A stretch of 56,542 nucleotides of DNA, the filler included, from Dugesia japonica (taxonomy: Eukaryota): assembly GCA_001938525.1 (NCBI GenBank). It is 4 parts of 4 records of this genome, joined end to end, with 100 filler letters (N's around TTAATTAATTAA, not from the genome) between each part and the next. Parts side by side here need not be neighbours in the genome. Positions count along the whole stretch, not along the records: positions 26,978 to 43,380 come from MQRL01165966.1; 3 more parts are not named here. One strand, written 5' to 3'. The notes beneath the pieces were generated by a model, which saw nothing but the letters and a program-made list of their open reading frames with translations, did no database searches and was not told the origin of the DNA. Positions 21,138-50,729 of this stretch are shown piece after piece (position 1 is the stretch's first letter; every line of letters starts with the position of its first letter). The position numbers and the translations under genes were made by a program.

Positions 21138-21238
21138 AGTTGGAAATAAATGTGACCTTAAAGTTTTGTTTGTATATTAAAGTGTAAATAATAAATATAT
21201 TTTCAAATTTCACGATGTCCGTTATTACTGATTTAACT
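21138..21238 (+). repeat. 5' LTR (101 bp, AGTT...AACT)
   Basis: Matches 25084-25184 with 6 mismatches in 101 bp (manual count). Confidence 0.97.
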
Positions 21239-21252
21239 GGCGATCACTGCCA
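21238..21252 (+). promoter_or_regulatory. Primer-binding site, probably tRNA-Arg
   Basis: TGGCGATCACTGCCA overlaps the last T of the LTR and resembles the TGGCGA(C/T)C... Arg-tRNA PBS class. Confidence 0.75.
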
Positions 21253-24200
21253 TGTCAATTCAATAAAAAGAAACCAAGCAGCAGAAGCAAAAAGAATTTA
21301 CTAAGCTTTACCTAAAGAATCGCGAGAACTGTTATTTCCAAGAATAACAAAATTCTCAGGAAATTATGATGAAGATCTAATTGCGTGATTGAAAGGAATT
21401 GAAACGTTCTCAGCCACAAATAACTTCTACCTCATGTCAACGTTTGACATTTTATTAGATGGCGACGCTAACAATTTATGGCTAGCTTGCAAATCACGAA
21501 CCAAAATGGACGNNNNNNNNNNNNNAGATTGATTCAAATTAAAGTTCATCCAAGATAAATCCTTTTTACGAATTACTGAAGATTTCAGTATAATCACTCA
21601 AAAGACTGATGAAAGATATGAAAATTTGGAATTACGAGTTATAAGAGCACTGAAAGAAATATTCGAACCAGGATTATCAATGGAAAAAATTGTGAAGCAA
21701 GTAATTCAAAAAAGAATAAAATCTCTAGATTTAAAATAAGCCTTTGTCCTGAAACCAGATTTGAATGCTGATGATATGCAACAGTTAGCTGAAAATTATG
21801 AAAAAAACGATGACATTGAAGAAAAGTCATAAGTCAATAAATTATCATATTCTGATGTGGCAGCAGCTAATTACTGTCCAATGTTGAAGAGAATGGATAC
21901 ATAAAAATTAACGGTTGGAATTACATGATAATTCCGGATAGGTCAATGGCATCAAAGCCAGCTCTATATGAACTATTTATGAACTATTTAAACAAGAAAA
22001 ACTTCACTGTTCCAATTTCGTCTGTGAAGTCAAGACAGTAAGAACAAATCAAAATCAAAATTTAAACGTAGAAGATGAGATGTATTTAAAGAGCGATGGA
22101 AGAACTTGAAGCGTGATTAAAGTGAATAGTAGAGGTGTAGAAATGTTATGGGATACAGGAGCATCAATTTCAGTAATGTATATGAATGCTTGGAAAAGCT
22201 GTGGTTCGTTTTCAGTGAAAAATTTAGAGATAAAATTGAATGGAGCACTTTNNNNNNNNNNNNNNNNNNNNNNNNNNNNNNNNNNNNNNNNNNNNNNNNN
22301 NNNNNNNNNNNNNNNNNNNNCAGAGTATAAGCCCAGAGTTCATTGGTGGAATAGACATGTTCAAAGTTTTTAATATTCAATTAAAAATGATTGGGTTAAT
22401 CGAGTCAGATAATGCAATGTGTGATGTTTCTGATGAGAATCGTTTAAGAGTCACTATGGACGTTTTCAAACCAAGAGATGACACCTTTAAAAAATTGTTA
22501 ACGCGTTTCGCCTCGATATTCATGGTGAATACTTTTGAACTGGGTAAAACACAATTAGTTAAACATTCTATCCAAACAACGGGGAATACTGTCTTACAAC
22601 AGCCAAGACGACTACTCATGCATCTAGAAGGCAAGATTGATGAGATAATTGAAACACTTGTCAAAAGCGGTATTATCTAAAAATGCAGTAGCCAGTGGAA
22701 CTCACTTATGATGATTGTTAACAAAAAGAATGAAAATATTCGTATGTGTCATGATTTCAAATTACTAAATGAAGCAACTCATAAATTTTCGTTTCCTATG
22801 CTAGATCGTCAGATGTTATTCGATTATCTTAGTGAGTGTACCATATTCTCAACAATAGATATAAACCAAGCGTATTATCAAGTCGAACTAGAAGAGAAGG
22901 AAAAAATTAAAACCGCTTTTTTTACTAAAAAAGGCCAGTACTGCTATAATCACATTCCATTTGGCCCTATCAACCGCTCCGGCTACGTTTAAAAAATTAA
23001 TGCATACAATTTTTTCAGATATTCTTTTTAAAGTCGTAGTTTATATCAATAATTTTCTAATCTTTGCGAAAAATTGGAAGGATCACGATCGCATTTTATC
23101 AGAAGTATTTCAAAGAATTTAAGCATCTGGTCTTAAAGTAAATCCAGCCAAATGCAAACTGTATCAAGAAGAGCTCGTGTTTTTGGGTCATACAATAAAT
23201 AAATTTAGATTAAAACCAAATTCGGAAAAAGTCAAGGAGATTATTAATGCAGTAATTCAAAAATGTACTAAAAATTTGAGATCTTTTCTTGGAATAACCA
23301 ACTATAAAAAATTTTTCGCAACTTAATACACCTTTATTTGCTGCTACCAAAGGTCAAAAGCACGAGATAATCTGGAAAAAATGCGAGACAAGTTTCAGAA
23401 AAATCAAGGAAGCTCTTTGTAATTCTCCAGTATTAGGGTATCCTAATTATGAAGATCAATTTATTCTGGATACTGTTGTCAGTTTTTCGAGATTTGGTGC
23501 TGTACTAAGGCAATCACAAAAAGGTATGGAAGTCCTTATAGCAAATGGATCATGGTTGCTGAACGCACATGAAAAAGAATATTGTGTGAACAGGTAGGAG
23601 TTATTGGCTCTTTATGAATTTATTCAACATTTTTGGCATTATCTTTATGGGGAAGGTTTTATCGCGAAAGCATATCACAAAGCTTTAGAGTTTGTAAAGA
23701 ATTCAAAAGAACCAATTACGCTGCAGTTTCAGACTTGGATGAACGAGTTATCAGAATATATTTTCGTATTGAAGTACAGAAAATAGGGAACATCATTCCA
23801 ATGCTGCTGTTATGCCAAGACTGATGTCTAGTTATTGTTCACAATGTCAAACTAAACATGAAAATGCCAAGTCTAAATCGTCTAAGGTAAAATATTTAAA
23901 TGTTATGAACGTTTTCAGAAGTGATTTGCACAATTACATAAAAGAATTTAAAGACGAATTATTTAAGGAAATCAAGATTCATTTGATGAACATATCTATT
24001 AAATTATCAGAAACTATAAAAACATCCCAGTATTTTAAATATTTAGGTTTTTAATTGCAGACGATATGTTGTTAATTGAGTCAGACAATGAGCAAAAGAT
24101 CGAGGTTCCTAAAAAATGAGTAACTAATTTTGTGAACAAAATTCACAGAGATTCATGCCATTTTGGAATAAAGAAAACAACAAAATTTGTATCTAATTAT

Positions 24201-25063
24201 TTCTTCTGGCCAAATATGATTACTGATATTCAGAATGCTATCAGAGAATGTCATTTTTTTATGCACAGGTAGGTTAGTAGTGAGGAAGTTAAGGAAAAAT
24301 AAATACCAAGATACGCAGCTTGGTATAAATTTTGTATCCAATTTTTGTATCCAACAAACAAATACATGATAATCATAATTTATCAGTTCAGTAAGTTAGT
24401 TAGTCTTTATGCAACCACAAATCAAAACNAAAACACGATCAAAAGTGCATTGTTAAATAACTGGAAAAACAAAATATGGAAAACCTAAACGTATTGTTTC
24501 TGATCGAATAAGAGGGTTTGAAAGAAAGGTTTTACAAGAGTTTGCTTTAAAATTTCATATTTCGTAAATATTTACATCTCCCATAAGCATAAGTCAAATG
24601 ATTTAGCAGAACGCGCAATTAGAACTGTCAGAGATATGATAGTAACATCCTTGAAATCTGTAGGAGAGGAGAAGTGTTGAGATGAAATCCTTCCAAAAGT
24701 TGAGTTTTCATTTAATTGCGCGATATCAATGGCGACAAGATTCTCTCCAATGGAAGTTATCTATAAAGGAAAGTTAATATTCATTCAACGAAAGAATTNN
24801 NNNNNNNNNNNNNNNNNNNNNNNNNNNNNNNNNNNNNNNNNNNNNNNNNNNNNNNNNNNAAAATGATGAATCAAGAAGAAAACCGAGTTGAAAGGGAATT
24901 TAAAGTTTAAGATAAAGTTCTGGTGAAGAGATATCCGACAAAACGAAAGAAAAGCGATTATATATATGATGGGCCTTTCAAAATTATGGAATTCCTATCA
25001 GTAAGATTGCAGAATTTGGAAGGTTCGACATACAGACGTAAAGAATTGCTGAAAAAGTGTTAA
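21252..25063 (+). pseudogene. gag-pol of the compact gypsy element (disrupted)
   Basis: Gag TKFSGNYDED; protease MLWDTGASISV; RT IRMCHDFKLLN, FSTIDINQAYYQV and IPFG; RNase H RELLALYEFIQHF; integrase SNDLAERAIRTV and YDGPFKI. Confidence 0.93.
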
Positions 25064-25069
25064 AAATCT

Positions 25070-25083
25070 GAAAGAGACGGAGA
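25070..25083 (+). promoter_or_regulatory. Polypurine tract
   Basis: GAAAGAGACGGAGA directly precedes the 3' LTR. Confidence 0.85.
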
Positions 25084-25184
25084 AGTTGGAAATAAATATG
25101 ACCTTGAAGTTTTGTTTGTATATTAAAGTGTAAATAATAAATATATTTTAAAATTTCACGATGTCTACTATTACTGATTTAACT
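25084..25184 (+). repeat. 3' LTR (101 bp)
   Basis: Direct repeat of 21138-21238, followed by TSD TAAAT. Confidence 0.97.
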
Positions 25185-25189
25185 TAAAT

Positions 25190-25367
25190 TTAATTGGTTA
25201 AAATATTATATAAATTTTACCATTGCAAAAAGAAAAGGAAAAACAACAAGTTATCTAAGTTAATAATGTATCAATTTATATATGACTGTATTAATCAACG
25301 TATAAAGGATTGGAAAATACATTATACAGATACAGATTTTATGTTTTTAGATTGTATGTCTAAATAA
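25190..25367 (+). pseudogene. pPolB 3' part (internally deleted)
   Basis: Continues the frame from 21137 (...IHRKLMYFK|FNWLKYYINFTIAKRK), then LSKLIMYQFIYD and motif C KIHYTDTDF. Motif B is missing. Confidence 0.88.
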
Positions 25368-26977: not shown

Positions 26978-27454
26978 GATTTAATCATTAATAATTTTAT
27001 TTTCCCAGCAACTTTTATTAATTAATTAGTTTCTCTGGCCATAAACAATGACGATAAACATGGTAGAGTTCTGTCTCAACAAATTACTTCGGGGCCCGTT
27101 AAGATTCGGTCCCCGAATCAGAATAATTGGAGTTTCTTTGGTCAGAATTTGCTTATTGAATTTGTATTAATTTGGGTTGATTTTCCGAGAGTAGTCATCG
27201 AACAATAAAAATGAATAAAAATATGCTATGTTTATCATCAATAGTATAAAGATAGGACTACACAGATATAAGATAAGAGTTGATAAGATTAAGCAAGGCA
27301 TGAAAGATCATATAAAAATGATCACACAAATGGATAAAAATTAAGTTAAATAAGTAATTACACATATGGATAAAGTAAGTGTAAATATAGTTTAACGATC
27401 ACAAGTTTAAACAGAATTTTCTTTGTAATATTTGAATTTATCCGCTGTTGTTAG

Positions 27455-28363
27455 TTAGATAACTGTATGGATTTGGTTGGAATCCTTCTGAAAAGTTATT
27501 TTGATGTGTGAAGGCTGTCTAATTGCATAGTACAATAAGTCGTGGAGGTATTCCAGATCCCGTATTTCTTCTTTATTCTCTTTTAAGTCTCCCGTTAAAT
27601 TTACTCCTCTTTGCGATAACTCCTTGATCTTGCTATTGCGTTTCTGAATGACCAATTCTCTTTTACTGCTCCACTCTTTCGTTTCTTGTAATAGCTTTTT
27701 TAGCTCAACATTTTCCCTTGCTACTTTGACAGACCTCTGCATAATCTGACGAGCAACTACTGCCTATAGCCTTTTGTTTTCTCGATTTGCCAGTATTACT
27801 CGATTTTGAACGTTTATTTCGGCCTGCATCTCTACCATTTCCATTTTCGCAAAGATTAATTTATCCTTATTAGATTTTAGTCGGCTTAATTTTTCCTGAG
27901 CCGCTTTTAACTTTTCTTCCAGGTCTTCTACTTGGTCTTTTCTTTTATCTGTAGTTACAACTTTATTTTTGTTGTAACCCCTGAGCATAGCCATTTTGTT
28001 TCAATGTTGAGCCTCTCCTATGATGTTACGGGTTGCGCGTTTTACGTATCTGAGTTCAGATACCTTCCTCTTAATACATAAGACCGCTACTTGCGCACTC
28101 TTTCTTTTCGATCTCTCATCTTCCCATCGATTTTTATGGTCTTCGCTAATTCGCGTCAGTACTTGATTTCACAAATTTTGCGCAATAGCCCACAGCTTCC
28201 ATTTTTCGGCTTGTCTTATTGTTGAAGCACATTGGTAACATGTTTTTTGACAGTTTGTTTCCTTGAGGGTTCCGTCTCTGACTGGCTTTCCTAGGTAGAG
28301 CCGGTCTCTCAACTTTCTAGCTTGTTTCCGTAAGGCTTTTGTTTTATTTGGTAATCCCTGCAT
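27455..28363 (-). pseudogene. ~300-aa coiled-coil protein with CxxxCxxC motif (accessory ORF)
   Basis: Track ORFs 28169-28363, 27764-27994 and 27455-27742 share one frame and join across three premature stops; K/E/Q/L heptad-rich. Confidence 0.8.
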
Positions 28364-29375
28364 CTGAATGATAAAGCGATTATCATTTATGATACTTATT
28401 TATAATGACTAATTATTAAATCGATTAATAATTATGAAAGTTATGGATTTAAATTAATACAGATTATTAATTCGTTTAATAATTGTAATCACAAATAATG
28501 ATAAGTCGATTATCACTGCCATACGTTATCGGTTCATAATTTGACTGTTTTCATTTTATTATTAATTCATTCAATAATTCCATTTAATGATAAATCGATT
28601 ATCATTATAATACATTGTTGGAACATTGTTTTACCATTTTAGTGATACTATTCAATTATTAAATGATTTTTGATTGACTTCTTTTATTATCAGGGTTCTA
28701 ATACTTGTTTACCAAATCGACTTCTGCTAGATTATTAAATCGTTTAATTATTCATTATTACGGCGTTCGTTAGTATTTAGTTAATTATTAATTCGTTTTA
28801 TAATTTAGAGTTAGCTGGATTATTAAATCGGTTAATAATCTTATTATTAATGCGCTTAATAATATTTGGTTAATTACTTTATGGTTTATTAATCTTATCA
28901 TTAATGCGTTTAATAATACTTGGCTACTTATCACTTCGTTTAATAGTTTTATGCTAGCCGAATTACTAAATCGTTTAATAATATATTATTAATTCGTTTA
29001 ATAACTTGTTAATTTGTTTAATCATGTTTAGTCAATTATAAACTTGTTTAATAATTTTATGTTAGCCAGATTAATAAATTGTTTAATAATTTAGCGTTTT
29101 GTTGGATTATGAAATCGTTTAATAAGCTTATTATTAGTGCGTTTATTAATTTATTCAGACAATTGATTTTATTAAATTTTCTTTTCAGTTAATTTTTGAC
29201 TTTTTGACACCATCCTTTTGATTGTTGGGTTTCTGAGATTGGCACGACTCTGTCATTAATTTTCATACTTCTTTCTTTCTGTGCATATTTTTTTGGTATT
29301 TTATTTGGTAATTGACTACTTTTACTGTTTTTGTATTTTTATTGAACTTTTTTATTTTTTTCTGTTTTTTATAAT

Positions 29376-30818
29376 TTACAATTTTTTTACATGTACTACA
29401 CTTTCTTTACCCACATTTCTTACTTCTATAAATATGTTACCACCTTTTACGAAATTTGTTAGCACACTTTTTATTAATATGAACGTTGGAGATCCTGATC
29501 CTTAGTTCATATCGGATATAGGTTTCTGAAAGAAGATCTCGCTTGGCTTACCTTTATATATTTCGCCATGCCCTTCTGACCATCTGTCGTATCCTGGGGT
29601 TATTCTCATACTAACTTTGTTTGCCATGGGCCATTTTAACTGGTCGTCATATTTTCCTTTTCTAATTATAAAGAAAATTTTTAAATGAGTTCTTCTTCTT
29701 AATCCATCTCTATTAGGGTAAATTCTTAAAGACACGAGTTAACCTTCTTTAAATATAAAAAATGGTGGGCTGGTATAATGTAGGCTGTTATATCGTCCAT
29801 CTTTCCCATCTGAAGATGATCTTACTATGGCTAATTTGTGTGCGAAGTCTTCTATCTGCCATATATAAGAGCATACTGATGTCTTGACCTCTGGTGGTGT
29901 TGAGGGTAAAGATATAATGATTTGGCTGTGTTTCTCCTTTATAGCATTCCATAATTGGTTTTTTGTTTCGTACATTTTGTTGAATAAATCGTTTATCAAC
30001 TCCAGGGTATGATTCTTTAGGTTTTCTTCTACTTGAGTTACTCTTTGTTCAAAATTAAATGTGATAGCTTGGATATGTTCTTTAGCCTTTTTGAAAATAT
30101 GCTCATTTACCTTTATTCGGGTTCCTTTGAATCTAGAATCACGGGCATTCTTTAAGTTCTTTAATGCATGTAATTATGTGAGTACTCACTTTTACTACTT
30201 CTTCGCAACAATTGTTAGGGCATTTGGCCATTAGTTCTTGGCATACTTGTATTTTATGGGGGTTCATGTGGTTTTTCATGGGTTTTCTCAACAAAAATTG
30301 TTAACAATTTCTGCATACTATTTCTGTCATGGGGCATAATTCTTTAAAATGTTCCTCTTCGTTGAATTTAAATATGGGTGTTTTACACTTTTCGCACATT
30401 ATCGGACCTTTAGAGCAGTTCATTGTGTGTTCGTCTAGATTCATTATTTTCTCTTCAAATTCGCACTCTGGATACGGGCAGGTTCTTTCAAGACCCGCCA
30501 TTTCTCTGGCTATTGATCAGTCAGGTAGAACTTGTATATTTTCTTCGCATTCAATATTAAAACATTTATTCTGGTTTTCTATAATTTGTTTACTGATGAC
30601 AATATCTGCATCCACAGCTACTTTACATGAGTTCCATCATTATTAGGTTGCACTTGGTACATTTATAACGCGTTTCTATTTCTTCTGCTGACTCGAGGTT
30701 CTGTATTAATTTTACTACATTTGCTAGTTTTTTGCGAGTGGTGTTGCATCTGCCTGAGGTATATCGATTGGATTGGTTGTTACATCCTGAATATTTACAA
30801 TTTGTTAATTCTTTTCAT
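29376..30818 (-). pseudogene. TRAF-family protein (RING, TRAF zinc fingers, coiled coil, MATH), intron-less, disrupted
   Basis: RING CTKCNLIMMELMxSSCGCRYCHQ...KCFNIEC; VLPDxSIAREMAGL; ZnFs CPYPEC...H...C, CEKC...H...C and CPNNC; MATH YIWQIEDF, YTSPPFF, SLRIYPNRDG, THLKIFF, GKYDDQLKWP, FQKPISDMN and FVKGGNIFIEV. Confidence 0.93.
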
Positions 30819-30965
30819 AATTACAATTTCTAATTATCAAAACGTAGGTACATATAATATTATTAATGGTTATAATTTTTGTCAGGCCTTTAAATTTATT
30901 TACATTTATTTTTATTTTTGGAATGTTTTCTGGGACGTTGAAGAAGGTATGAATTGTTCATTCTC

Positions 30966-31421
30966 TTAACGTCTTTCTTCCTCATTAAGTAATATGTCTA
31001 GTAAACTTCGTGTGCCTCTCGTATCTCCTAATTCATTCTGTATTGTAACATTGTGGTTTGTAATAGTTTGGATTTCTATTTCATTATTATGTATAATATT
31101 TCTTTGTTGTTGAATGATGTTCGGGTAATATTGGTGTGTGATGGTTGCTTCCCATAATTGGCGACGAGCTTCCAATGACGCCGATTCTGTTGAAACTAAT
31201 AATGAATTTAAAGTAACAAAATGTTGTTCCCATAATGCTTCTGATCTAATACTTTCGTATACTGGCATAGCTGCAAAGTTTATTTCATTTGCTGCAATTA
31301 CTGGTGGATGAGGAAATTCTATTGGAAAGTTGAGTTATCTGACAATTTGGATTCTTTTATTTACATTTGGCTGTTCACTGGAATGAAAGACTGGTCGTAG
31401 TGATTGATTAGCTTCTGCCAT
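30966..31421 (-). pseudogene. Small accessory ORF of unknown function (~150 aa)
   Basis: ATG at 31421 is in frame with track ORF 30966-31268 across one TAA; MAEANQSLRPVF...LLDILLNEEERR. Confidence 0.6.
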
Positions 31422-31576
31422 CTACAATATTATTTTTCATCAATTTTCTCTACTATTTTTACATATACAATCATATTTCTGCATTTAATACTGATAATTT
31501 TTCTAATTTTTTATATTTTTACAATATTTATTCTTTTTACATCTGTACGATAGGAGTTTCTTTATGCAAAAGTGTA

Positions 31577-33726
31577 TTACGGTGATCCACTTATATCTGT
31601 TGACCACATAATTTTTGCCCTATCGAAGGGTAGCTGATAATTATTATTTCGTTGGTTTCGCATAGCGACAGGGAGTCTTAATCCTTTGTGCTGCCCCCTG
31701 AGTCGCTTGACTATTAATATTGTTGCTATTATACATGTTATGCAGAAAATTATTGAAGTTGTTGCTGCTAACACATTTGTCTTTCAGTTCTCTGTCTTTG
31801 GTGTATCTATTAATATTGCTGAGCTTATACTTATTAATCCCGCGTTGTAAATTGATGCAATTGTCGTAGCATTTGGTTTAGGTATTTTTTTTATTATTTT
31901 TTCTAGAAATGCTTCTTGTTTTAGAGTTAATACATTACCTTCTTCATTTTGTGGTTCTGGTTGTTTTGTTTCCTTTTATTTTGCCGTTTTTATCTTTTCT
32001 GTAGTTCGTTTTTTTGTTGTTGGTACCTTTGATGTAGATGAGATCTTTTTGTAATTTATTTGTTGGATTGAAATTCGTCTGTTTTTCAACATGACGAGCT
32101 GTAAAAATAAAATTTTGTTATATATGATGAATTCTTTAATAAAGCTGTCTTTCTCAAATTCTGAGCGTTCTACTGCTAATCTATTCGTTGGTTTTAACCA
32201 TTGTTTAAGAAGGTTGATTTGTTCGATTATCATATTTTGTGCATCTAGACTGGTCTATTCTATTTTTGCAATTTTATTCGAGTGTCTTATAAATGTATTT
32301 ATTTTCGTTTTCATCGTTATGGATTGGTTTTTTACTTCCAGCATTTGTGGTTTGGTATCCTGCATTCGATATCATTCGATGCTTATTTCTTGTCCTGAAA
32401 AACTCATAACCATCACATATATTTTGTTGTAACTGAATTTTATTAGTTGTTCGACTTTAACTGTTTCTGCTGTTGTACATCCATTAAATGTTACAATCCT
32501 GAATACCTGCTTTGTTGCGGTCGTAAACGTTATTAGAATAATCCGTTTATGTGTAATTGTACTAGTTTATTATTCATTGATGGACTCGTTTTATTTCTCT
32601 ACTCTCGTAAAGTATTAGTGGTTATTACAATTATCGTTGTCAAATTGAATTATTACTATTTTTAACAGTTCTGAAGTTTGCAATTTTATCTTCAATCCTT
32701 CGTTGTTATTACTTAAGAGTATTCTTGCTCTTGCCTTTTCGGTTGGTAATGCTAGTTTTAATTCTGTAGTTTTATTAAGGAATGTTTTTCTGGTCTATGT
32801 TTCTTCGCTTGAAAATTCATCACGACTGATAGTCTCTATAATCTATAATCTGACTCTATAAGCAGGTGATGCTCTGTATGTACATATTCTGTTATTTTAC
32901 AACTTTGGCTGGTGCATTTTCCTAATAATGCCAATATCATTAGAGCCCATAGTCGATGTCCGCAATATAGTATAACAATACCAGCTAGCAACAAGCTTAT
33001 TCATAGTTCGTATATGTCCCTGTCAATTATAGTTTGTTTGCAATTACATGGTGTAGATTTTCGTTCTTTTGCTTGTGATATTGGTAACATTAATATAACC
33101 ATTATCAAAATTAATAATATTCCTGATGCAAATGAGCTGAATAAATTTCTGAATATTGTTGTTTCCGGTTTTGATTCTTCTTGTCTTCCTTTTTAGGGTT
33201 GATCGTCTAATTCGTTTATTTTTTCTGAGCCGGCATTTTCCGTTGTTTCTCTTCGCTGCTTTGCTACCACTTGTTCCTTGTTTAAATGTAGTGGGGTGTC
33301 CAGAATTTAGTTATTTTGATCTTCCATCAGCTTTCCTTGTAATTCCTTATCTTTTGTTTGGTTTTCTTTTTCTGCCTACTTTACATATGCTATCCTTTGT
33401 GTTTGCTGTGCCCAACTAGATTTGAGTTCTTCGTACTCGACCATTTTCCTGCTAATGACTACCATTGAATATCCTCTCTTTATTTTAAAACTCTTGCCGT
33501 CCTCGGCAATGTCCTTCATTTCCATTCGTTGGGAATCGGTTATATGTCGTCGGAATTTGGTGTCACTCGCTGAGTTATTTGCTTTTCGACTTTCTTGCGC
33601 TTTATTTCCTTTGATATTCTCCTTGGTGGTAATGGGTGTTCCATGCTCACTTTGTCTAGTTTTATATGAATAGATCGTTCCATACGTAGTATTATTTCGG
33701 TCGTGCTTTCTAGACAGTTCATACAC
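31577..33726 (-). pseudogene. Env-like multi-pass membrane protein region
   Basis: Hydrophobic segments GILLILIMVILMLPISQA, ISLLLAGIVILYC and LWALMILALLG; ~380-aa ectodomain with N-glycosylation sequons (NKT, NES, NQS, NAT); C-terminal TM VLAATTSIIFCITCIIATILIV followed by basic KRLR and a short tail. Confidence 0.6.
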
Positions 33727-34779
33727 ATTTCTTTTACGTCTTTTGTAGTTATTGGTAGTGGTTTATTAATTGTTGCATCCTCGTGACAACATCCTTTCTT
33801 TTGTCCATTTTTTCATATATTCGTTTAATTGCTTCTCTAACTGGTAATATTGAGGTTTCTAATTGATATTTGACAGTAATTAGACAGTGGTAACACATTT
33901 TCTTTAACTCATTTCTGCTCACTGGTAATGTTGAAGGTCGAACTCTTTTACTATTAGACATTTGATCCGCTTTGCTTCAATTGTTTTTTTCGGTTTTGTT
34001 TTCTTTTTTACTTTCCCGATCTTTGGTTTTCAGTTGTGAGTTGTTGCTTGGTAGATATTTGTAGTAATTGGAATAACACCATTTTTTGGCCGTCGTCGAC
34101 TGCTCTGTTTACTTGAAATTTTGCCTGTTTTGTAGTTTGGATACCATTCTGCATGTTTACATCCAACTAATCTAATTTTTTGAAACTTTGTTCGCATGAA
34201 ATTAGCTGCTGTAACTATTTCCGTTTTTGTTGTTGATAGATAGTAAGCAAAATAATTTTGTATACTTTCCTTGTTGATAAGGAGTTGTTTAGGTATTCGC
34301 AGTATCTAAAACATTTATTGTCTTTGCATTGATTTCTGTTTTTATCTTGTACACGGAATAATTCCCTCAATTCTAGGGCTACTGCTGCCTCTGATACCAT
34401 TAATTCATTTTAAAAAGTAATATTACATTGGTAACAGTCAAATCGTGCTGTTCTTTGATCTATTGGTATTGTGTTTCTTTGAGTGACACCACATTTTTTA
34501 CAAGACTTTGTTTCTGAAACTTTGTTGATTTGCAACATACAAATTTGTTCTAGTTGAGATCTGAGATGATAATCCTTTACTTCTGTTGGTGGTTAAATTC
34601 GTATTTCTCTTGGATTTCGTCCACATTTTAATCCTTTGTATGGCAATTTTTGTTAATCATCCGAGTTACTCGATACTTCTTGAGTTGGTTTTGTTTCTCT
34701 AATTTTTTTACTTCTGTTTCTTGGGTTTTTGTGATAAATTTTTCATCTGTAACCTTTGTTAAAGCTGCCTTTTTTACAT

Positions 34780-36640
34780 CTATTCACATGAATCCATAGT
34801 GGTTTCTGAAGTATTTAACCAACTTATCTGACTTTTACATTTGTTTCTGTGACTACTAATACTTCGTAAGGCCCTTTGCCTGGTCTATTTAACTTTGATA
34901 TTGTGTTGACTTCTTTTTCTGGAGTATTAACTAATACTTTATCTTCTTCTTTGAACATATGAGGTTTTGCTTTCTTGTCATGATAATCTTTGATACTTTC
35001 TTGATAATATTTGATATTTAATCTTACTTTATTCCAGATCTCTTGTATTTTCTTTTTCATTCAAATGACATACTCTTCTTGTTCCATATATTGTAATATG
35101 GGAGTCTGGTATTCCAAATCGATTGGTAAATTACATTCTCTTCCATACATGAGAAAAAATGGAGTATAATTAGTGGCTGGTATTTGGAAGCAGTATTTGG
35201 AAGTATAAAGTGACTTCAGTAAAAATATCACTCATACAATTTTGGCCTTGATCCATTAGGATATTTTTTTGGTGTACCATATTTCAGCAAGTTTCATTTA
35301 CAAATATTTCTGCAATTGTTGTGGCTTTTTGATTTTTCATTGGTTATGTTTCATGATACTTAGACAGATAATTCATACATACCAGAATGTATGAGTTTCC
35401 ATTTACAGTTTCGTGTAATGGTCCAACCACGTCCATCACCATTTGGTTTAGTTGGTATTAGCATTAGTTTGAATGATGCTTTTTCTGAAGCTCCTGTTCG
35501 TCTTCTGGAAGCGCATATCTGACAATTTTCTATCCAATCCTTTACATCTTGAGCGATTCTTGGCCAATAAAATTTGTGTCTTAGATTGGCTTTTGTTTTT
35601 CTTGTTGACATATGTCCTCCGAGTACTCCATTATGTTATTGCTGTAAAATTCATTCTTTGTGTGATTTTGGTACAAATATCGCCTTTTTATATCCATTCT
35701 GTACCATTAACCATCCCTTTTCCATTGTGTAACGACATCCATTTTTCAGTAAGTGTTCTTTCATTTATGGGTCGAATTTTAGTGCATCACTTTATTTTGC
35801 CATTATATATTTCTTAATAATTTTTGCTTCCGAGTCTTCCTTTTGATCCTCCTTGATATGTTCAAAATTTATGTCCTCTGATAATAAAAAACAAATAGCT
35901 TCTGTTTGTTCGTTTACAAGTTCTGGAAATATTGCACGTGATAGACAATCTGCATTAGAATTTGCTTTGCTGCTCCTAAATTTTATTTTTGTCATGTACT
36001 CTTGTAAACTCATTGCCCATTTTACCAGTCTGAGAGTTTGTAAGGGTTTCTGGCTAATCATAGTTAGTGGTTGATGACCTGAAAATATAATGACTTCATG
36101 TCCGAGAAGTAGATGTCAGATTTAAGTCGGTTTGACTTTTAAATTCCTAGTGTCGAAGTCTAACGAAGACTGTTTGAAGATCCTCTATGTGTTCTTCAAA
36201 TGACGTTGAGAACATTAGTAGATCGTTTATATATACCATACAATGTACTATACCATGTGTGACAAAATTCATGCATCTCTGAAATGACGCTGGTGCGTTA
36301 GTTAGACCAAATGGTATTCGAATAAAATGATATAAATCGCGTCCTGCTGTAAATGTTGTCTTTTTCTTATCTTTTGGTTTGATTTTTAATTGCTAATATC
36401 CGCTTCTTAGATCAAGTGTTGAATATGTTATCGCTCTTTATTTGCATTGTTGCATTTTCTCGTTGAATTGAGCCGCTTATCTGTCCGAGCGGGTAGATAA
36501 CTTGTCCGTTCAGAATATTAACTCTTAATTTAGTCCCTTTCATTGGTCTGTGTGTTTGTGGTGGAAGTGCATCTGCTCCTGTGTCGATCAATGCTATAAG
36601 TTCTATGTCATTAATTTTTACTTTCATTAGTAGACCACCT
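34780..36640 (-). pseudogene. pol (PR-RT-RNase H-integrase) of the giant element, with internal deletions
   Basis: ALIDTGA; TLDLRSGY, IPFGLTNAPASFQR, VYINDLL; RLVKWAMSLQEY...NSNADCLSR; HHCC GGHM...FYWPRI...CQIC; MDVVGPL, ILMDQG, TPFFLMYGRE, KGPYEV. Confidence 0.95.
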
Positions 36641-39600
36641 CCTCCCACTGTTGTTTCTGTACAGACATTTCTTGTTTCTAAGTCTTGACTGCTCTGCATT
36701 GTTAATGATTGCCGGTTTTGTACCGGTGGTTGTGCATTGTCTTGTAATACCATTAAGCTTCTTGAACTCCTAATGTTCTGCTGTATTATTGGTTCCATTT
36801 AATGTGGCACTGGTGAATTTATTGGTTGCGATATTGTTTGGCCTGGTAATACTGAATTCATTGGCATAGTCCAACTTAGATTAAGTAGTGGATTTGAAAA
36901 ATCGTATAATCTAGGTACTCGTCTCAATTGTGTTGGATCTTCCATTGGTTAATATAATCCGTCATTACCTATAACATCTGTAATAGATAAATTTGGTACT
37001 TGTAGATTTCCTAGATCATAGGTTTGTGCATGTCTTTGATACATATATTTGAATGATTTTTTAACTTTTTTATTTTTTGATTTCCTTCTGGCCTTTTTCT
37101 TCTGTTTTCTGTCTTTCCGTACAACCTATTCATAATCTGGAGTTTTTTTCTCTGTAATAACTTGTTGACTGAATATTTCCTCCTGATTCATTGCTATCAC
37201 TACAGGTACTGTTGTATGCTAGAGTTTTTTGTCTGGTTACTTCAGTTCTGCTTATCTTTGATTTTGGTTGTTCTACTTCCATGATTTCAATATAATCATT
37301 TTATTTGGGAGTCTAGATCTCCACGCTGTATGATCAAATATAGTTTCGTCTGGTTGGATCTTTTCGTAATTATCATCTAAAAGTGCTGAATCTCCTCTAC
37401 CCGTTGTATGGGTACTTGTTCTTTTTGGTGGATCAAAATTTGCTAACAATCGTCTAAAAGATCGCATAGATTCACCCGTACTTTGTTTTTTTTTTGACTT
37501 CATTTGAGTTTTAATATTTTCTGCTTCTGGTTGGTGGTAACTTTCTCTTTAAGCTCGCTACTTTTGGTTCTTATTGATGATTGAATTGGTTTGTCCTTTG
37601 TTCGAGTACTACCTCAACTATACTTGATTGATCCTTTCTTGCGCTCGTACTTGATTGATCATCTATTTCTATTATTTCTGGAATTTCTTCTTATTTCTTT
37701 AACCAATATTCTGGTGGTATAGGGCGTACTGTAATTGCGTTCGGTCGTTTTGAGTTAAGTCCTCGCATGCTGATAATTTCATCATTTTGAATCGATCTGC
37801 CTCGTAATTGGAAAAAATATGGTTCAACCCATGGTAATCTCTTCTTTATTTTTCCCATTCTTTTGTATTCTAATACTTCTATATTTGAAGTTGTACTATC
37901 TGGATCTGTTTTTTAAGTTCAAAATTGTTTGAAGGATCTTCTTCTATTTCCATTCTACACCATTTTATTTATCAAATTTTTTAGATTTTCATGCAACCAA
38001 TACGTTCCCTCTTTTAAATGTTGTAACTATTCGACCACAATTCTCAATTCTTTAAGTGACACATCTTCTTCACATGCCTTTTAAGCTACTCGTATTATTT
38101 CTCTCGTAGGAACTGGATCCCTTCTCAATAGCGGAACGAGCTCATCTAGAATGTTCTTTTGTACATCCGCTGATAACATAGAGATACTTTCTTGGCCTGA
38201 TTTCACTTTATATTCTGTTTCTAGATTCGACGCGCTTGGATCTGATTTTTTAAACCGGTCCTTAGATATTTACTCTCACCAGACTTCTTGATGTATTCAA
38301 TTTTTAACTCGTCTGGTATCACTGGGTTGAGTATTTTGGCAAATTGTCGTATTATTTTCTCTGATTACTCTGAGATTCTAGATAAGGATAAATAAGGGTT
38401 TTCTTGTGGCTCTTCACTACCGTTAACATATAGTTTCAACTTCGACCCTTTTCATAGTACTAATAATTTAACTGGTACTTTATCGTAATTTTCGATTATC
38501 TCTTGACCGTAAAATATTGATATATCTTTTTCTGTTACTGAAGTAACTTGTATATCATCATCATCATCTGATTCCTCTACTTATTCATTTTCTTGTCTTA
38601 TATTAATTGCTTTTACGAAATCTTTTTTAACTTGACTCCAAGTGTCGTCTTCATAATTGATCAATGTATTTTTTTTGACTTATTTAGATATTTCAGCTGC
38701 ATTTCAAAATTTGTGGTTTCCTGAATCTCTTCACTGTATGCTGATACTAAATTGTTGATTGCTATCCGCAGTTTTTCTCCTTTATGTGCTTTAATTTTAT
38801 TGAATCGGTCAATAATTTTTCGGATATTTTTATCCTTCAAACTGTTAAAATTGTATAAAAGTGTCAACACGATTCGAGTTAACTTTTGATCATGTGGCTG
38901 GTCCAATTTTGCTGTTTTATCTATGTTATGTTGTGGGACCAACGTTTTCCGGTTAAGACCTTCAATTACTCTATCACAACTATCCTTTACTGATTTTACG
39001 ATGGCTGATACTATTCTCATTACTTACCGCTTCTACATCGTCTACATTTTCTTTTAGCCGTCACGGAAAGTCTTTGATTATTGATATTAAATCTCCGGAA
39101 CTTGTTGATGGTAGCTTTTTGATTACTTGATATTCTTGTACGAATCGTAGTATAACTTTGTAGTCGTCAACTAAAGTGTTTTGACGCAAATCCTCTTTAT
39201 ATTTCTTTAGCATGTCTGCCCATTGCAATCGCGTGTAAAGATCAATGTGATGATGATTGTATAATTCTGGTAGATGATTTATAACTTCCCAATACATCGA
39301 TATTGGGATCTTTCTTTTAACTCTTTTTTGTCTCTTAATCATTTGAGTATAACCTATAAAGGTTAGAATTTTTTTAATTTCTTCCGAGTCTATATTGTAT
39401 GTTTCATCGGGTTTTATCTGTAATTTTTGTTTACTAGTTCTTGATATATCTTCATCGTTTGATCTTTCGTCTAGATTTTTCAAATGTCATTCGTTGACTT
39501 TGTTGTTTGAATTGTGCTTCGCAGCATGTTTATTGTTACCATTGTAGTTGGTATTTTTGGTTTAATTTATGTTTCGAAGATATTTAGTATATTTTTATTT

Positions 39601-40500
39601 TATTTCGCTACGAATACGAAATCGTTTCCACACCTCTGCTGGTGTGTCGGGAAATTCATCGGGATGTATTAACATTGGCCTTGTTTCTACTCCAGGTCTC
39701 ACTCCTGCATTACACAAATGTTTATTGCTGCAATCGATGTACACTAGATTCCAATTATTTTGAATAATGTTTTCATCCAGTGATTTGTTTAATGGTAATT
39801 TTCGTAATTCTCGTTTTAGACTACCTACTAAAACGAAGTCAAGCTCAATTCATTGGCTTTCTTTTGCAAATTCCACCATGATTCAGAATCCACTGGCCCA
39901 GGTTATTGTAAATATTTTATGTCTGTAATCTTTTACTGAGGCTGCCCAATTTGATTTAACTGGTAATGCTACTGCATATTGTTGGCATAATTTCTCAATA
40001 TTAAATAATAACTTCTTGTAAGTTTATGTTGTTATCAGATTTCTCTACTATTGGGCTTTTTCCAGTGCCAATGTAGCAATCATTATTTCTGGGGAATCAT
40101 CTACAAATTTTCTCGCTTGTTTTGCGATTAGCATTTCTCTTTTATTCACTACAGCTTCCATTTCTCTAACCTCTTTTATCGGAATTTTAACTGGAATTAC
40201 CACACCTGGCCTAATATTAGGTTTGGCTACTTCTATGACTTTTTTTAAGAGTTCTTCCTTTAATTCGTTGCCCAGTGCCTTGGCTTTTTGCGTTTCCTCA
40301 ATAACTATTTTTGTATAAACCTCTACTAAAAAGCGATCTTCTAAATGTTTTAGTATTTGCTTAATACTTCTGGATTCGTAGAAAGCCTGTAGTATATTTC
40401 GTGATAAGTGGATTTTATTCCACTAAACCATTTTTATTATGGTTATCTCCACTGGACTGATACCAAAGGCAGTAATATGAGCATTATCATCATTCAGATT
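36640..40500 (-). pseudogene. ~1300-codon coding-like region of unknown function between nucleocapsid and protease
   Basis: Chain of same-strand ORF fragments (39061-39483, 38661-39020, 37273-37503, 36412-36798) with protein-like composition and no AT-rich non-coding gap. Confidence 0.65.
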
Positions 40501-41202
40501 GATGACCGTTTGCCCTGTAATAGCTGTATTCCATTCTTTCCGCAATAGTTGCAATATATTGCTCTGCTATCTTTATTTTTGTTTTCGAATCTCCTGAAAT
40601 TAGAATTTTTTTCACTATTATTACGTGTATTAAAATTATTTCTATTGTTATTTCTGTTATCTCGTTGAAAATTAGAGTTTATATTACTATTTCTATCTTG
40701 TCTAGGTGTAAATGGTTTCATTATTGTTTGAGTTCTAGGTATAAATTGTTCTATTTTTGGTGCTGTTTGCTTTTCTTTCTCTACTGCGAAGATTCGTTCT
40801 GATCGCTTGCAGACTTTTTTAGCTAACATAGCTAACCCGATTGCTTCCTAAACTGATTGGGGTCTATTCGTTGCTACCCACTTTTTGACTTCACGGTTTC
40901 GTATACTATCGATAAAGATACTAAGTATATGATCATCGGATACTTCTCCTTTGTATGCTATTTCACCAAGTCGTTTGAGTTCACTAGCATATGTGTGATA
41001 AGATTCATCTTTGTGTTGTGGTCTTCAATCAAATTCTTTGAATTCTTGGCCTCTTGTTCTTTGGCTTGTAAATTTTCCGTGAGAATTTCTTTGGCTCTCT
41101 CCCATGAGCTTGGCAATTCGGTTAGTTGTTTTGTTTTATCGAGATATAATCTTTTAGCTGCTCTAGTCATGGATGATATTATTCTGGAAACGTTTTCCGT
41201 TT
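40500..41202 (-). pseudogene. gag (capsid-like part, N/R-rich linker, truncated zinc knuckle)
   Basis: ELPSSWERAKEIL; RDNRNNNRNNFN; YCNYCGKNG (first half of a CCHC knuckle). Confidence 0.75.
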
Positions 41203-42350
41203 CTGTATAAATATAAAATTTTCTGAATATTAATTTGTTAATAATAATAATTATTTAATTTAAAATCCGAATTATTTTTGATTACATATCTCGTAAATCA
41301 GTTTGAACAGTTTCATTGAATATATTTTTTAAAACCATTAAACCTTATTTTTTTTATTGTCTTAAATCGTACTTCAAAAGAAGCTCAAAAGTTATATATT
41401 TCGCATTCTACTTATAATTATTTTCGTACTTCTTTAAAGAAGCTCATTTATTTAACCCTTAATCAAATCATTCTGGTCAATTTTCTAGTTTATTTCGTCA
41501 ATCTTAAAATCTAGTTTTGTTCAATCTAAATCGCTTATAATTTTATCGTTTCCTGCGAAGTTTTGTTTAATTCTATTTATTATTCTCCAATTTCTCTTTT
41601 GATTATCACCATCCAGTTTTACATTTATTGTTGTTCGTTGTCTTATTTTGTTTCTTAGTTGATCACCAGTTATCGTTCAAATATAATAATTCGTTTATTA
41701 TTTACTATTGCCAGTTAATATAACTCGCTTATTATTCTCCACAACTTCTTTATCAATCCAAATTAATAATAATTCGTTTATTATACTATCAATTTATTGC
41801 TTTATGCCAAAATTTATTAAATTATTTCGTTTAATATTTTGTTTTAATTATATCAATTTGTTTTCAAAATTAATTCGTTTAATATCATTATTTTCTATTA
41901 ATTCGTTTAATAAGTTTCCGTCATAATTGAGTTTGAAATAATATTAATTCGTTTTAATATTTTAATATTCATTTTATTTCCTCCGAATTTTTACGATTTA
42001 ATATTTATTCGTTAAATATTTAAATTATTAATTCGATTTATAATCTAATTTATGTTTAAATTTTCTTCATTTTACAATAGCAATATTAAATATACCGGAT
42101 CGTTTAACATCTAAATTTTTAATTTTGTTTAAATTTACCCAAATTACATTTTTATTTTCTATTTGTTTAATATTTTATAATAGATTTAATAATAGTTTGA
42201 TTTTTTAAAGCGTTTAAAATATCGACAGCATTAATTTGTTTAATACCAAAATAATAATCCGATTAATATTTGAACTTCTTATTATTAATTCAATTGTTAT
42301 TTTAATATTGAGTTCTTTGCTGTTTTACTTTCCCTAAATTTTTATCAAGT

Positions 42351-42367
42351 ATCCCAACTGAGCCCCA
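42351..42367 (-). promoter_or_regulatory. Primer-binding site, tRNA-Pro-like
   Basis: Minus strand TGGGGCTCAGTTGGGAT resembles the Pro PBS TGGGGGCTC...GGGAT and lies ~1.1 kb upstream of gag. Confidence 0.75.
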
Positions 42368-43380
42368 AAAATTCTTTTGGGGTCATGGATGATATGACTC
42401 AAAAATTATATCACTCACAACCCTCAAAACTGGGATTTAAATACCCGTCCTGAGAGTATGTTGATGGCAGCCCGGTGACTTTTGTCCGACGTCAAGAGTG
42501 CATGAGCGCACCACATGCGTATTATTTAGGTTCATTATTGAAGTCGACGATAGAAGTAGTAATGGAAGGGAGTTTAATCATTTGTATTTATAGTAATTGA
42601 TACGCACATGTACAATACATTTATAAGTGTTATAAACAGTATTGTTAATTTATCAATGATCTTTCAATAAGTCTACAAAAATCTTTCGGATTTTTCTGGG
42701 TGGAGGAACTGAAGATGGTGTTGAAGGCTGACTATGCAGGAGTTCGCTCAACTGCTTGTTTTCGGTACGAAGCCATTCAACCTCGGCATCTAATTCCAAA
42801 ATTCGCATACCCTGCACAGTGTCCCTTCGGGTAAATTCTATGTTCAGCCGCCTGAGCTGCGACATTTGGAATACCAGCATACCAATCTTATCCTGCAATG
42901 CTTGGCATGCTCTGGACTAGTTGGTTGTCGTAGCCAATTGACCATCAAAACTGGCCGCTATTTGTACCTCCTGACCAAATGTTCTGCTGGGACAGAGTTG
43001 AAACAAATGTTGATTCGCGACATTTTGTGGAGCATTCTCGTCCATATCTAAACATTTCAGAATAAATCATGCTTAGTCCTGCGAGATAGAGACTTACTAT
43101 AATGCTTATGGCAAATAACGATATTAGATATGTAATATTTTATATAGTAAAATTATTAAATTTACAATTTTATAATTAGTTAATAACATCCATAAATTAA
43201 TAATAATTAGTGGTTTAGAGTAAAACTATAATAAGGGAATAATAGTAGTTACCTATATCAATAATGGTCGTTGGTGCTTACAAGGTGAATATTAAGTAAT
43301 AAAAATAATAATCCCGTAACAATAGTGATGTCGAAAATCTTACTAATAGTAATAATAGTAGTATGGCCATTGTGAGGTAA
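42368..43380 (-). repeat. Presumed 5' LTR (partial) of the giant element
   Basis: Directly upstream of the PBS; TATA-like TATTTAAA at ~42436-42443 (minus). No second copy is visible to confirm it. Confidence 0.55.
42653..43045 (-). pseudogene. ~130-aa coiled-coil ORF inside the presumed LTR
   Basis: ATG at 43045 is in frame with track ORF 42653-42898 across one TAG; RILELDAEVEWLRTENKQLSELL coiled coil, then PPPRKIRK. Confidence 0.65.
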
Positions 43381-49931: not shown

Positions 49932-50729
49932 AATTATTTGACTTATTACTAATTTATCAGTTGAATATGCATCAAGACAAATCATCTATACACTAATTTC
50001 ATTAAACTGTGAATAAATTTTAGTCACCTACAAGCAAATTATACCACTTATATACAAATTACGATCACCGAGATGTAATTTACTGTAACCTATAAGCAAA
50101 TTATCACCACCTATGTGGAAAAGATAGTAGACTATATACATATTATTGCAAGTTATGAGAAACTTATCACCCCCTATGAATATATTATATTTACATATAA
50201 GCAAATTGTAACGCACTGTGTGTAAATTCTCACCATCTATTGTACATTGAGACATTAGTTTGAAAATTTTTCAAGTCTAAATTTTATTTGAATAACTTGA
50301 TTTTATAATATCTTTAAAAATTTTAATATAATATTAATAAATATATACTGAGTCCATAAGCAATTTCATTAAAATGTGTAGACCCGTAATTAAAAATATA
50401 AACTAATTTTATTAAGATTTGTTAAATTTCCATTAATTTTCTCAAGTTTCATAAACTTTAATTATTAAGTTATTTCCTCTTATATATTGATTTAGTTTAG
50501 ATTACACAGCGCAGCACAATAAGAGTTTAGATATTCAAATTAATAAATATCAATCAATTATCCAACATTATTATTATTATTTATTATGATGATTATTGTT
50601 ATTTTTATTATTATTTATTATTATTATAATTATTATTATTATTAATTTCATTATTATTAATAATTATTAAGTACTTGATTTTTCTGTATAACTTTTATGT
50701 ATGATATTTGTTGGTTTTTAACTTTAATA

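Follow-up and report, generated by a model that had tools for sequence, protein, structure and literature searches.

Four groups of described retroelements lie closest to the locus reported here, and what follows on them is drawn from excerpts of the cited articles. Atlas virus combines a Bel/Pao pol with a 498-residue class II Gc, which carries 30 cysteines and stands behind Gn (PMC9094657). The planarian Burro elements exceed 30 kb, have an in-frame F-like env between gag and pol and encode BCL2, BIR and ankyrin domains (PMC6431247). Among Ty3/gypsy elements, the excerpt of a recent metazoan survey gives two envelope types only, the F type with a conserved furin site and fusion peptide and the gB type with conserved cysteine bridges; its flatworm elements have only gB, in the order GAG-ENV-POL (PMC13524379). 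According to the same excerpt, the survey used baits and limited GAG-POL-ENV candidate regions to 10 kb, and it would therefore probably miss an element like the present one. The sORF2 of the MDG1 group has been linked to cell-to-cell transfer (PMC11952523), and TRAF genes are greatly expanded in planarians (PMC6109357).

The window analysed here comprises 56,542 nucleotides of Dugesia japonica (GCA_001938525.1) in four parts, one of which, from MQRL01165966.1, holds a Ty3/gypsy element that carries a membrane protein right after the integrase, probably within the same giant protein, and then a captured TRAF signalling gene. The module occupies the position of an envelope gene, yet it matched no known viral envelope in the searches made. 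No published description of this layout, a membrane module behind the integrase and then a TRAF, was found in the literature searched. Several smaller planarian LTR families are reportedly annotated by Grohme et al. (2018), and the element family may be drawn there or in Repbase.

Results

Organization of the element

The following features were assigned outside the membrane module:
26978..43380, minus strand: decayed Ty3/gypsy LTR element of 16.4 kb or more, whose two ends are lost in assembly gaps
40537..41114, minus strand: gag-like segment with a zinc-knuckle-like Cys motif at its end (motif by eye, coding by statistics, start uncertain)
36660..40536, minus strand: unknown coding sequence of about 1300 codons between gag and protease (coding statistics)
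36151..36660, minus strand: N-terminal part of the protease and RT core (RVT_1, E=1.2e-15; protease weak, E=0.067)
34760..36115, minus strand: RNase H end, integrase zinc domain, core and GPY module (Integrase_H2C2, E=2.7e-19; RT_RNaseH, E=3.3e-5; rve, E=0.0094; GPY by reading)
29376..31421, minus strand: separate TRAF frame with RING-like Cys motif, TRAF zinc fingers, coiled coil and MATH (TRAF-mep_MATH, E=8.6e-20; zf-TRAF, E=6e-4; RING by eye)
27480..28363, minus strand: coiled-coil-like frame, about 290 codons long (3 stops, where shuffles have 12.6)

The order PR-RT-RNase H-IN, with the H2C2 zinc domain and the GPY module (34874-34866, minus strand), is that of Ty3/gypsy (Metaviridae), and the protease and RT core are each shortened by internal deletions in this copy. 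No LTR pair was found inside 26978..43380. The gag-like segment had no significant Pfam match; the sequence between gag and protease showed no transmembrane segment in the pieces scanned and no significant Pfam or PHROGs match. The family is present in many copies, with a high copy number, and the membrane module is also found in other copies, from which this one differs at about 12% of sites. RNA reads cover the region of the module about 0-3 fold per direction, in both directions, in one read set, where 1138 of 1436 reads are less than 90% alike, and a second set has almost no reads there.

The TRAF frame, whose closest solved structures are TRAF3 and TRAF2 (E about 1e-19), begins 155 bases past the terminal stop at 31577, and no intron is apparent in it; the 153-base spacer behind that stop behaves as non-coding. 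Since the depth over TRAF is about half of that over the orphan domain of the module, the two may not always travel together. The frame at 27480..28363 had no Pfam match.

Membrane segments and topology

The features named in the earlier note, namely coding sequence after GPY, Cys-containing segments, hydrophobic stretches, an ectodomain and an anchor, are all present on the minus strand. Past GPY, about 540 codons, Cys-rich and then charged, lead to three hydrophobic stretches (H1-H3), a 377-codon domain, an anchor (H4) and a tail:
33570..34760, minus strand: Cys-rich extension after integrase, with a zinc-ribbon-like CxxC pair and a duplicated helical CxxC motif (sequence motifs)
33147..33570, minus strand: charged helical linker ahead of H1 (helices in the predicted model; length differs among copies)
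33070..33144, minus strand: H1, strong (hydrophobic 33144-33079; KD 2.66, approximate dG -5.0), with a signal-peptidase-like site at its end
32962..33069, minus strand: 21-residue peptide carrying a CxC pair, followed by H2 (33006-32962), with a stop at 33003-33001 in this copy
32908..32952, minus strand: H3, short and marginal (11-residue KD 2.52, approximate dG -0.3), with a second signal-peptidase-like site at its end
31775..32907, minus strand: 377-codon orphan domain with 3 Cys and 4 sequons, interrupted in this copy by 9 stops and a frame change
31709..31774, minus strand: H4, C-terminal membrane anchor, 4 basic and 0 acidic among the next 10 residues
31577..31708, minus strand: 43-residue tail and terminal stop (31579-31577), no TRAF-binding pattern

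H2 and H3 merge when a 19-residue window is used, which leaves the module with three segments, a number reached by 0 of 2000 residue shuffles; none of 12 gag, pol and TRAF pieces, one of them read one base off frame, has any segment. Signal-peptidase sites had been proposed after two of the hydrophobic stretches. Both satisfy the -1/-3 rule; each is weak taken singly, because 22% of random 8-residue stretches do so too, and the joint chance for both is about 5%. With alternating topology, the basic final tail would be cytosolic.

Our best reading, held tentatively and at somewhat under even confidence, is that the region forms the C-terminal third of a giant Gag-X-Pol-membrane polyprotein and includes an orphan glycoprotein in Env position, released by signal peptidase as in Atlas-type polyproteins. 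Translation would reach H1, which as an internal signal would take the ribosome to the ER, and signal peptidase would cleave past H1 and past H3, giving two products, a membrane peptide of about 54 residues (a short lumenal part, H2 and H3) and, at about 440 residues, a type I glycoprotein. In its layout the membrane peptide would resemble alphavirus 6K or flavivirus M. The Cys-rich extension, probably cytosolic and zinc-binding, would remain tethered by H1 and, until the integrase is freed by the protease of the element, could keep the particle membrane-bound during assembly, while the glycoprotein, Env-like in position and processing, would serve as the surface protein of the particle in budding, attachment or cell-to-cell passage.

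A four-pass protein with the large domain cytosolic, in which H1 and H2 would form one hairpin (H3 not being inserted) and a marginal segment at 31864-31808 would form a second one with H4, appears unlikely, and would serve either as a membrane scaffold or, together with the TRAF of the element, as a signalling mimic independent of any ligand. Herpesvirus LMP1 and K15 are signalling mimics of this kind. It would fit the energies, as the added segment (31852-31808, approximate dG +0.4) is about as marginal as H3, and the predicted model (pLDDT 59), in which H2 and H3 are one continuous helix; the tail would stay cytosolic, the Cys content of the domain is only 0.8%, its sequons do not exceed chance, its K+R content of 15.5% is as in pol, and a full TRAF lies directly downstream. 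Two short TRAF2-type motifs in the large domain (32812 and 32398) would also suit it, but two observed against 0.94 expected is chance level (P=0.24). Such a topology would make both signal-like sites accidental, whereas the Ser+Thr content of the domain, 18% against 11-14% elsewhere, suits an ectodomain; the lower depth over TRAF argues against a fixed partnership, and Burro has a TRAF beside a conventional Env, which implies that a TRAF needs no special receptor (PMC6431247, excerpt). The suggestion of a receptor mimic acting with the neighbouring TRAF could thus hold only if the large domain is cytosolic: in the type I layout the cytosolic part is the 43-residue tail, which was rejected as a TRAF-binding tail, as it contains none of three TRAF-binding patterns.

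Probable continuity from integrase to anchor

The type I glycoprotein of our preferred reading would be made as part of the polyprotein, and continuity with the integrase, as raised in the earlier note, was supported statistically. Breaks per 100 codons number 2.62 from GPY to H1 (9 breaks in this copy) and 2.50 from the domain to the stop, against 2.93 in pol and 6.9-7.0 in the untranslated flanks. The cheapest read-through costs 14 from GPY to H1 (shuffle mean 24.0) and 11 from the domain to the stop (shuffle mean 22.1), and in both cases 0 of 100 shuffles were as low. A codon model, trained on pieces almost wholly outside the region under study, showed the sequence from 41114 down to at least 32765 to be free of non-coding gaps with both penalty sets; with the stricter penalties 32764-30622 was called non-coding. 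Because the break density of the module matches that of pol and is far below that of the flanks, it is likely that gag to anchor forms a single polyprotein, of about 3,200 codons in this copy.

In this copy no single frame joins the transmembrane segments: H1-H3 are in one (with the stop at 33003), the domain and anchor in another, and the change lies near 32840. Gaps of one base in other copies, near 34770 and near 33810, lie beside inferred frame changes (at least two such cases among the 12 gaps listed of 54). None of the 12 substitution sites listed falls on a stop. In the Cys-rich extension, where CxxC pairs begin at 34502 and 34436, a 16-residue CxxC-containing motif is duplicated (33928-33881 and 33758-33711; 7 of 16 identical, E=1e-4); its copies lie in two frames, which would be expected if decay caused the frame change between them. 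The linker is joined differently in other copies (33359-33484 and 33187-33281), one variant differing by net 87 bases and another skipping 93, of intervening content not known, both multiples of three. The extension had no family match in Pfam, PDB sequences or PHROGs, and its stop-free stretch no usable ESM Atlas match.

The evidence for continuity comes from one broken copy, no intact one having been seen, and a true stop or a programmed frame change is possible among its breaks between GPY and H1. In a further reading, rather unlikely in our view, a true stop follows the integrase and the membrane protein, either alone or together with the Cys-rich part, forms a third frame of its own; as in errantiviruses, its message would be spliced or started internally. 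Gypsy-like elements are usually arranged in this way (PMC6431247, excerpt), and the arrangement would suit the five Met codons upstream of H1 in the H1 frame and the stops close behind GPY (34745, 34655 and 34595). Against it stand the absence of a non-coding spacer, the break density equal to pol, the distance of about 540 codons between GPY and H1 and, as weak evidence, the lack of an acceptor-like splice site in 34800-33120, compared with 1-5 in each of five other stretches.

The orphan domain and the known envelope classes

The putative glycoprotein belongs to no fusogen class tested. Two of the nine stops in its domain are TGA. Its layout, a strand-like N-terminal part, a long amphipathic helix, a Ser/Thr/Lys-rich linker and a helix, comes from a model with pLDDT 34 only, and the same holds for the question of a heptad or trimeric hairpin in the long amphipathic stretch at 32314-32039. 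The sequons named earlier are present at chance level (4 against 5.0 +/- 2.0 in shuffles) and were dropped as evidence.

As stated in the earlier note, there is no furin-plus-fusion-peptide motif: R-x-K/R-R is absent from the three pieces scanned, and for the F type (class I) the domain of this copy shows neither this motif, nor R-x-x-R, nor a fusion peptide. F or gypsy Env profiles were not matched either (for the domain, Pfam gave 0 families at E<=1 and the PDB no relevant match). The conserved cysteine bridges and five-domain ectodomain of gB (class III) are not compatible with 3 Cys in 377 codons, and a phlebovirus-like Gc (class II, as in Atlas), a beta-rich ectodomain of about 450 residues with 20-30 Cys, was likewise not found. 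Envelopes of the F, gB and Gc types thus do not fit a domain that has 3 Cys and lacks both a furin site and a fusion peptide. Nor does the module resemble a FAST- or sORF2-like protein, short, separate and single-pass with an N-terminal myristoylation motif, being about 520 residues long and multi-segment with an internal start.

Homologues of the domain piece were found neither among 4418 candidates of 738-2105 residues nor among 1.84 billion representatives, and the H1-H3 piece had none among 832 candidates. No related loci were present among metagenome contigs or viral contigs, the best E in the PDB sequence search was 0.11, and a PHROGs search with seven pieces gave nothing relevant. These blank searches are weak evidence for novelty, since the RNase H/integrase part also gave only one distant match (24% identity) among 252 candidates and the databases hardly cover the family. 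AlphaFold2 without alignment gave an unusable domain model (the one with pLDDT 34) and helices only for the H1-H3 piece; Foldseek with the domain model returned 0 matches at E<=0.001, the model being too poor for the result to count. Position, layout and missing homologues agree with the proposal of an unrecognised envelope, but the domain showed no fusogen feature and the folding was uninformative.

Quite unlikely, in our judgement, is a type I protein that is a non-fusogenic accessory, which might serve in adhesion, act as a decoy, block superinfection or derive from a surface protein captured from the host. The missing fusogen hallmarks would agree with it, and an env is not identifiable from transmembrane segments, glycosylation or coiled coils (PMC5408684, excerpt). 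Against it, the searches gave no homologue from the host animal, though its proteins seem to be missing from the databases, and the post-integrase position and double signal are virus-like.

A true gene at 31581-32840 on the plus strand, with the minus-strand domain as its shadow, was rejected as highly improbable: the plus strand is unusually open too (cost 8 against 17.9 in shuffles, z -4.8) and its open frame shares third codon positions, but minus codon content accounts for that frame (7 stops against 10.0, P=0.16), plus content fails to account for the open minus frame (9 against 14.1, P=0.02), base composition by codon position resembles pol, and the plus frame has no Pfam match.

Discussion

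A cysteine-poor, furin-less membrane protein behind the integrase of a high-copy family would be a third solution beside the two envelope types or a new membrane accessory, a claim limited by its resting on one dead copy with no homologue. The stronger form, in which the domain would truly mediate fusion or cell-to-cell transfer by means of a new fold outside classes I, II and III and would be a third Ty3/gypsy envelope beside F and gB, made as a Gag-Pol tail through two signal-peptidase cuts in an infectious retroelement whose own TRAF tunes host death or immune signalling, seems to us rather unlikely. The element would add a second planarian family that links retroelements to TRAF genes, and would make element movement between cells testable in an animal maintained by somatic stem cells.

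The comparison with known systems again uses excerpts of the articles. As in Atlas virus and related nematode belpaoviruses, a single Gag-Pol-Env polyprotein would have a membrane module after the integrase, internal TM segments and a C-terminal anchor (PMC9094657); unlike Atlas, the pol is of Ty3/gypsy type, the 377-residue domain has 3 Cys, and no Gn-sized ectodomain lies ahead. The giant planarian gypsy elements Burro and GYPSM1 share the giant polyprotein, probable in the present element, the long gag-protease insert, TRAF/MATH cargo, high copy number and an AT-rich host (PMC6431247). Membership in Burro was rejected, as there is no in-frame Env between gag and protease: the insert pieces hold no hydrophobic segment and no BCL2, BIR or ankyrin Pfam match, the membrane module follows the integrase, and the MATH/TRAF cargo is present as a separate downstream frame. 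With errantiviruses bearing F- or gB-type Env the element shares a Ty3/gypsy pol followed by a protein with a signal-like segment, an ectodomain and an anchor (PMC13524379). Rotifer Vesta4 and Vesta6c (PMC5408684) and MDG1-group sORF2 (PMC11952523) are, like the present module, gypsy membrane proteins without homology to known env; Vesta (210-230 residues) and FAST-like proteins (about 100-200) are short separate frames, unlike the module described here, which measures about 520 residues between the start of H1 and the stop and is apparently fused to pol.

Results

The element and its gene order

One element fills positions 26978-43380 from gap to gap, and its predicted domain order is that of Ty3/gypsy. 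Three-frame translation with Pfam gave a gag-like part, about 1300 unknown codons, a protease (weak match), a reverse transcriptase (RT, E=1.2e-15), the RNase H end, an integrase (E=2.7e-19) closed by the GPY module, the membrane region, a TRAF and a coiled-coil-like frame. The copy is dead: two internal deletions lie in its pol, which shows about 3 breaks in every 100 codons. A search for an LTR pair within 26978-43380 found none. G+C is 0.24-0.36 inside the element and about 0.12-0.32 in the remainder of the window, and the element's minus strand is A-rich. Together with AAT repeats and the TRAF borne by a retroelement, the low G+C would point to a dugesiid planarian as host. The features of the element are:

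26978-43380, minus strand: Ty3/gypsy element
42655-43045, minus strand: frame of 130 codons interrupted by one stop and including a coiled-coil-like part, where the 5′ LTR probably lies; RNA reads are more numerous here and many continue into other sequence
42350-42390: short inverted repeat adjoining a possible primer-binding site, which would mark the inner 5′ LTR edge
36660-40536, minus strand: about 1300 codons between gag and protease, coding, without significant Pfam or PHROGs match and without transmembrane segment
33144-33079, 33006-32962 and 32952-32908, minus strand: hydrophobic segments H1, H2 and H3
31775-32907, minus strand: 377-codon orphan domain
31774-31709, minus strand: hydrophobic anchor H4, followed by a tail to the stop at 31577
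29376-31421, minus strand: TRAF, in a frame of its own that begins at 31421, 155 bases past the membrane-protein stop
27480-28363, minus strand: basic, coiled-coil-like frame of 290 codons towards the 3′ end; with 1 break per 100 codons it has decayed less than any other part of the element, and its depth is far below that of the core
28400-29200 and 41700-42050: AT-rich degenerate tandem repeats of 35-54 base units

Short joints tie the 3′-flank repeats to the 5′ flank, so a motif may be common to the two untranslated regions. Elsewhere in the window we observed:

922-1191, minus strand: piece of an RT from a third element, with 36% identity to the RT of the element studied
5988-7760, minus strand: amiloride-sensitive sodium channel, an uninterrupted, single-exon frame of 590 codons (ASC, E=2.4e-47)
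10840-11358, minus strand: 172-codon frame weakly matching a piggyBac-type zinc finger (zf-Tnp_2, E=0.064)
21000-25200, plus strand: second, compact decayed Ty3/gypsy element with protease, RT, RNase H and integrase (Pfam) and a direct repeat of 101 bases, with copies at 21138 and 25084
48324-48414 and 49687-49968: 15-base tandem arrays, inverted to each other, with about 1.3 kb between them and open frames (48487-49058) enclosed; this may be a DNA element of foldback type

The membrane region is coding and recurs across the family

The coding-like character proposed for the membrane region in the earlier note was borne out: the cheapest read-through cost 14 from GPY to H1 (24.0 in dinucleotide shuffles) and 11 from the domain to the stop (22.1 in shuffles), values as low occurring in 0 of 100 shuffles in either case, and breaks per 100 codons were 2.62 and 2.50, respectively, as in pol (2.93), with 6.9-7.0 in the flanks. 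The hydrophobic stretches are also real. Three were found with a 19-residue window, at which width H2 and H3 merge, and none of 2000 residue shuffles reached three; narrower windows separate H1, H2 and H3. Twelve pieces from elsewhere in the element, one of them off frame, contained no hydrophobic segment.

At 31581-32840 the plus strand is also open (z -4.8), in the frame sharing third codon positions, and this is the sole region of the element where it is so open. Codon shuffles keeping the minus-strand content predicted 10.0 plus-frame stops, with 7 observed (P=0.16), and the reverse test predicted 14.1 minus-frame stops, with 9 observed (P=0.02); a plus-strand gene was thus rejected as a shadow of the minus-strand codons.

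Comparison with other sequence records (run X1; 44,225 contig records, 4693 at ≥99% alike, 11,608 at 95-99, 18,929 at 90-95 and 8995 below 90) gave a summed depth, which is not equal to copy number, of 254-364 thousand over pol (34648-36835) and 214-230 thousand over 31366-32459 and 33554-34647. The membrane module clearly belongs to the family as a regular component. Over 32460-33553 depth drops to 112-127 thousand, a shape repeated in a second run (X4). The dip takes in H1-H3 together with the strand-rich domain half and may mean that this part diverges faster or that some copies have lost it; a comparable dip lies at 38477-39023. TRAF depth is about half that of the membrane domain.

Probable continuity with the integrase

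The suggested continuity with the integrase is not visible as a single frame in this copy: the cheapest path from GPY to H1 takes 4 stops and 5 frame changes, followed by a stop at 33003 and, near 32840, a change of frame. Several lines of evidence suggest that these breaks are decay, although one true stop among the nine would give an identical picture and none of 12 listed substitution sites among copies fell on a stop. Break density matches that of pol, and a duplicated 16-residue Cys motif lies across two frames. Other copies have one-base gaps near 34770 and 33810 (among the 12 of 54 gaps listed), and the charged linker ahead of H1 has two length variants, both multiples of three (among the 15 of 184 joints listed). 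At least one of the contig pieces listed spans 34462-34816, joining the integrase end to the Cys-rich part. No acceptor-like splice site was found in the linker. A codon model ran from 41114 to at least 32765 without a non-coding gap; mild penalties extended the coding call to the TRAF end and stricter ones dropped 32764-30622, and its power is therefore low. On balance it is quite probable that the module closes a single Gag-Pol polyprotein.

Topology and identity of the domain

With the integrase and the basic tail both placed in the cytosol, the number of membrane passes should be even. With H1, H2, H3 and H4 all used, the module would contain two signals and yield a small membrane peptide plus a glycoprotein of type I. 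Alternatively, H1, H2, a marginal segment (31864-31808) and H4 would be used and the domain would be cytosolic, a live rival that fits its few cysteines and its sequons, which are present (4) at chance level (5.0 expected). On an approximate insertion scale, H1 scored -5.0, H2 -2.9, H3 -0.3, the marginal segment +0.4 and H4 -4.6; H2-H3 form a single helix in the predicted model. Two signal-like sites, matching the proposed signal-peptidase sites, and a Ser+Thr content of 18% favour the glycoprotein arrangement, although the -1/-3 rule is met by 22% of random stretches and carries little weight. Overall, the glycoprotein arrangement appears the likelier.

No homologue of the module was found in the protein collections, contigs, profiles or PDB searched; the integrase part had only one distant protein match, and therefore the collections barely contain the family. 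Judged from its sequence, the domain begins with a strand-like half, continues through a long amphipathic helix and a linker rich in Ser, Thr and Lys, and has a further helix ahead of the anchor; its model, built without an alignment, had a pLDDT of 34 and its Foldseek comparison was uninformative. Our scan of this copy agreed with the earlier note in finding no furin motif or fusion peptide, nor CX6CC. Furin site and fusion peptide are conserved in F-type Env and cysteine bridges in gB-type Env (excerpts of PMC13524379), and Atlas Gc has 30 Cys (excerpts of PMC9094657); lacking the first two and with 3 Cys in 377 codons, this copy was excluded from the F, gB and Gc types, and by these tests the module would lie outside the known fusogen classes.

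The TRAF frame

The TRAF (MATH E=8.6e-20; TRAF3 and TRAF2 nearest among solved structures) appears full and without intron, with RING-like, zinc-finger, coiled-coil and MATH parts and a long N-terminal extension; RNA reads are somewhat higher at its 3′ end. A receptor mimic acting with this TRAF, as once proposed, found no support in the glycoprotein arrangement, as none of three TRAF-binding patterns was present in the tail; the domain carries two TRAF2-type motifs, no more than chance would give. Since, in addition, Burro carries TRAF cargo alongside a conventional env (excerpts of PMC6431247), the TRAF is more simply explained as a host-modulating accessory than as the membrane protein's partner.

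Discussion

The module is a real, family-wide, orphan membrane module. The idea of an unrecognised envelope agrees with the position and layout of the module and with the lack of homologues in our searches, and it is weakened by the missing fusion peptide and furin site and the uninformative fold; that the module works as the element's surface glycoprotein is the favoured reading, though a tentative one, slightly short of even. Rotifer (PMC5408684) and fly elements (PMC11952523) also carry orphan transmembrane frames, and the excerpts of the former caution that such features by themselves do not make an env. Those of PMC8532177 and PMC11410931 hold nothing on structure. No account of this layout was found in the literature searched; the family may be shown in Grohme et al. 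(2018). In their survey, Chary and Hayashi report only F and gB types, by a bait-based search of GAG-POL-ENV candidates up to 10 kb (PMC13524379).

As far as the excerpts describe them, two systems come closest. In Burro, the planarian giant gypsy polyprotein that also bears a TRAF and whose long inserts resemble the one at 36660-40536, env lies between gag and pol, whereas the module here follows the integrase; in Atlas (Bel/Pao), the envelope is fused behind the integrase, the same placement as here.
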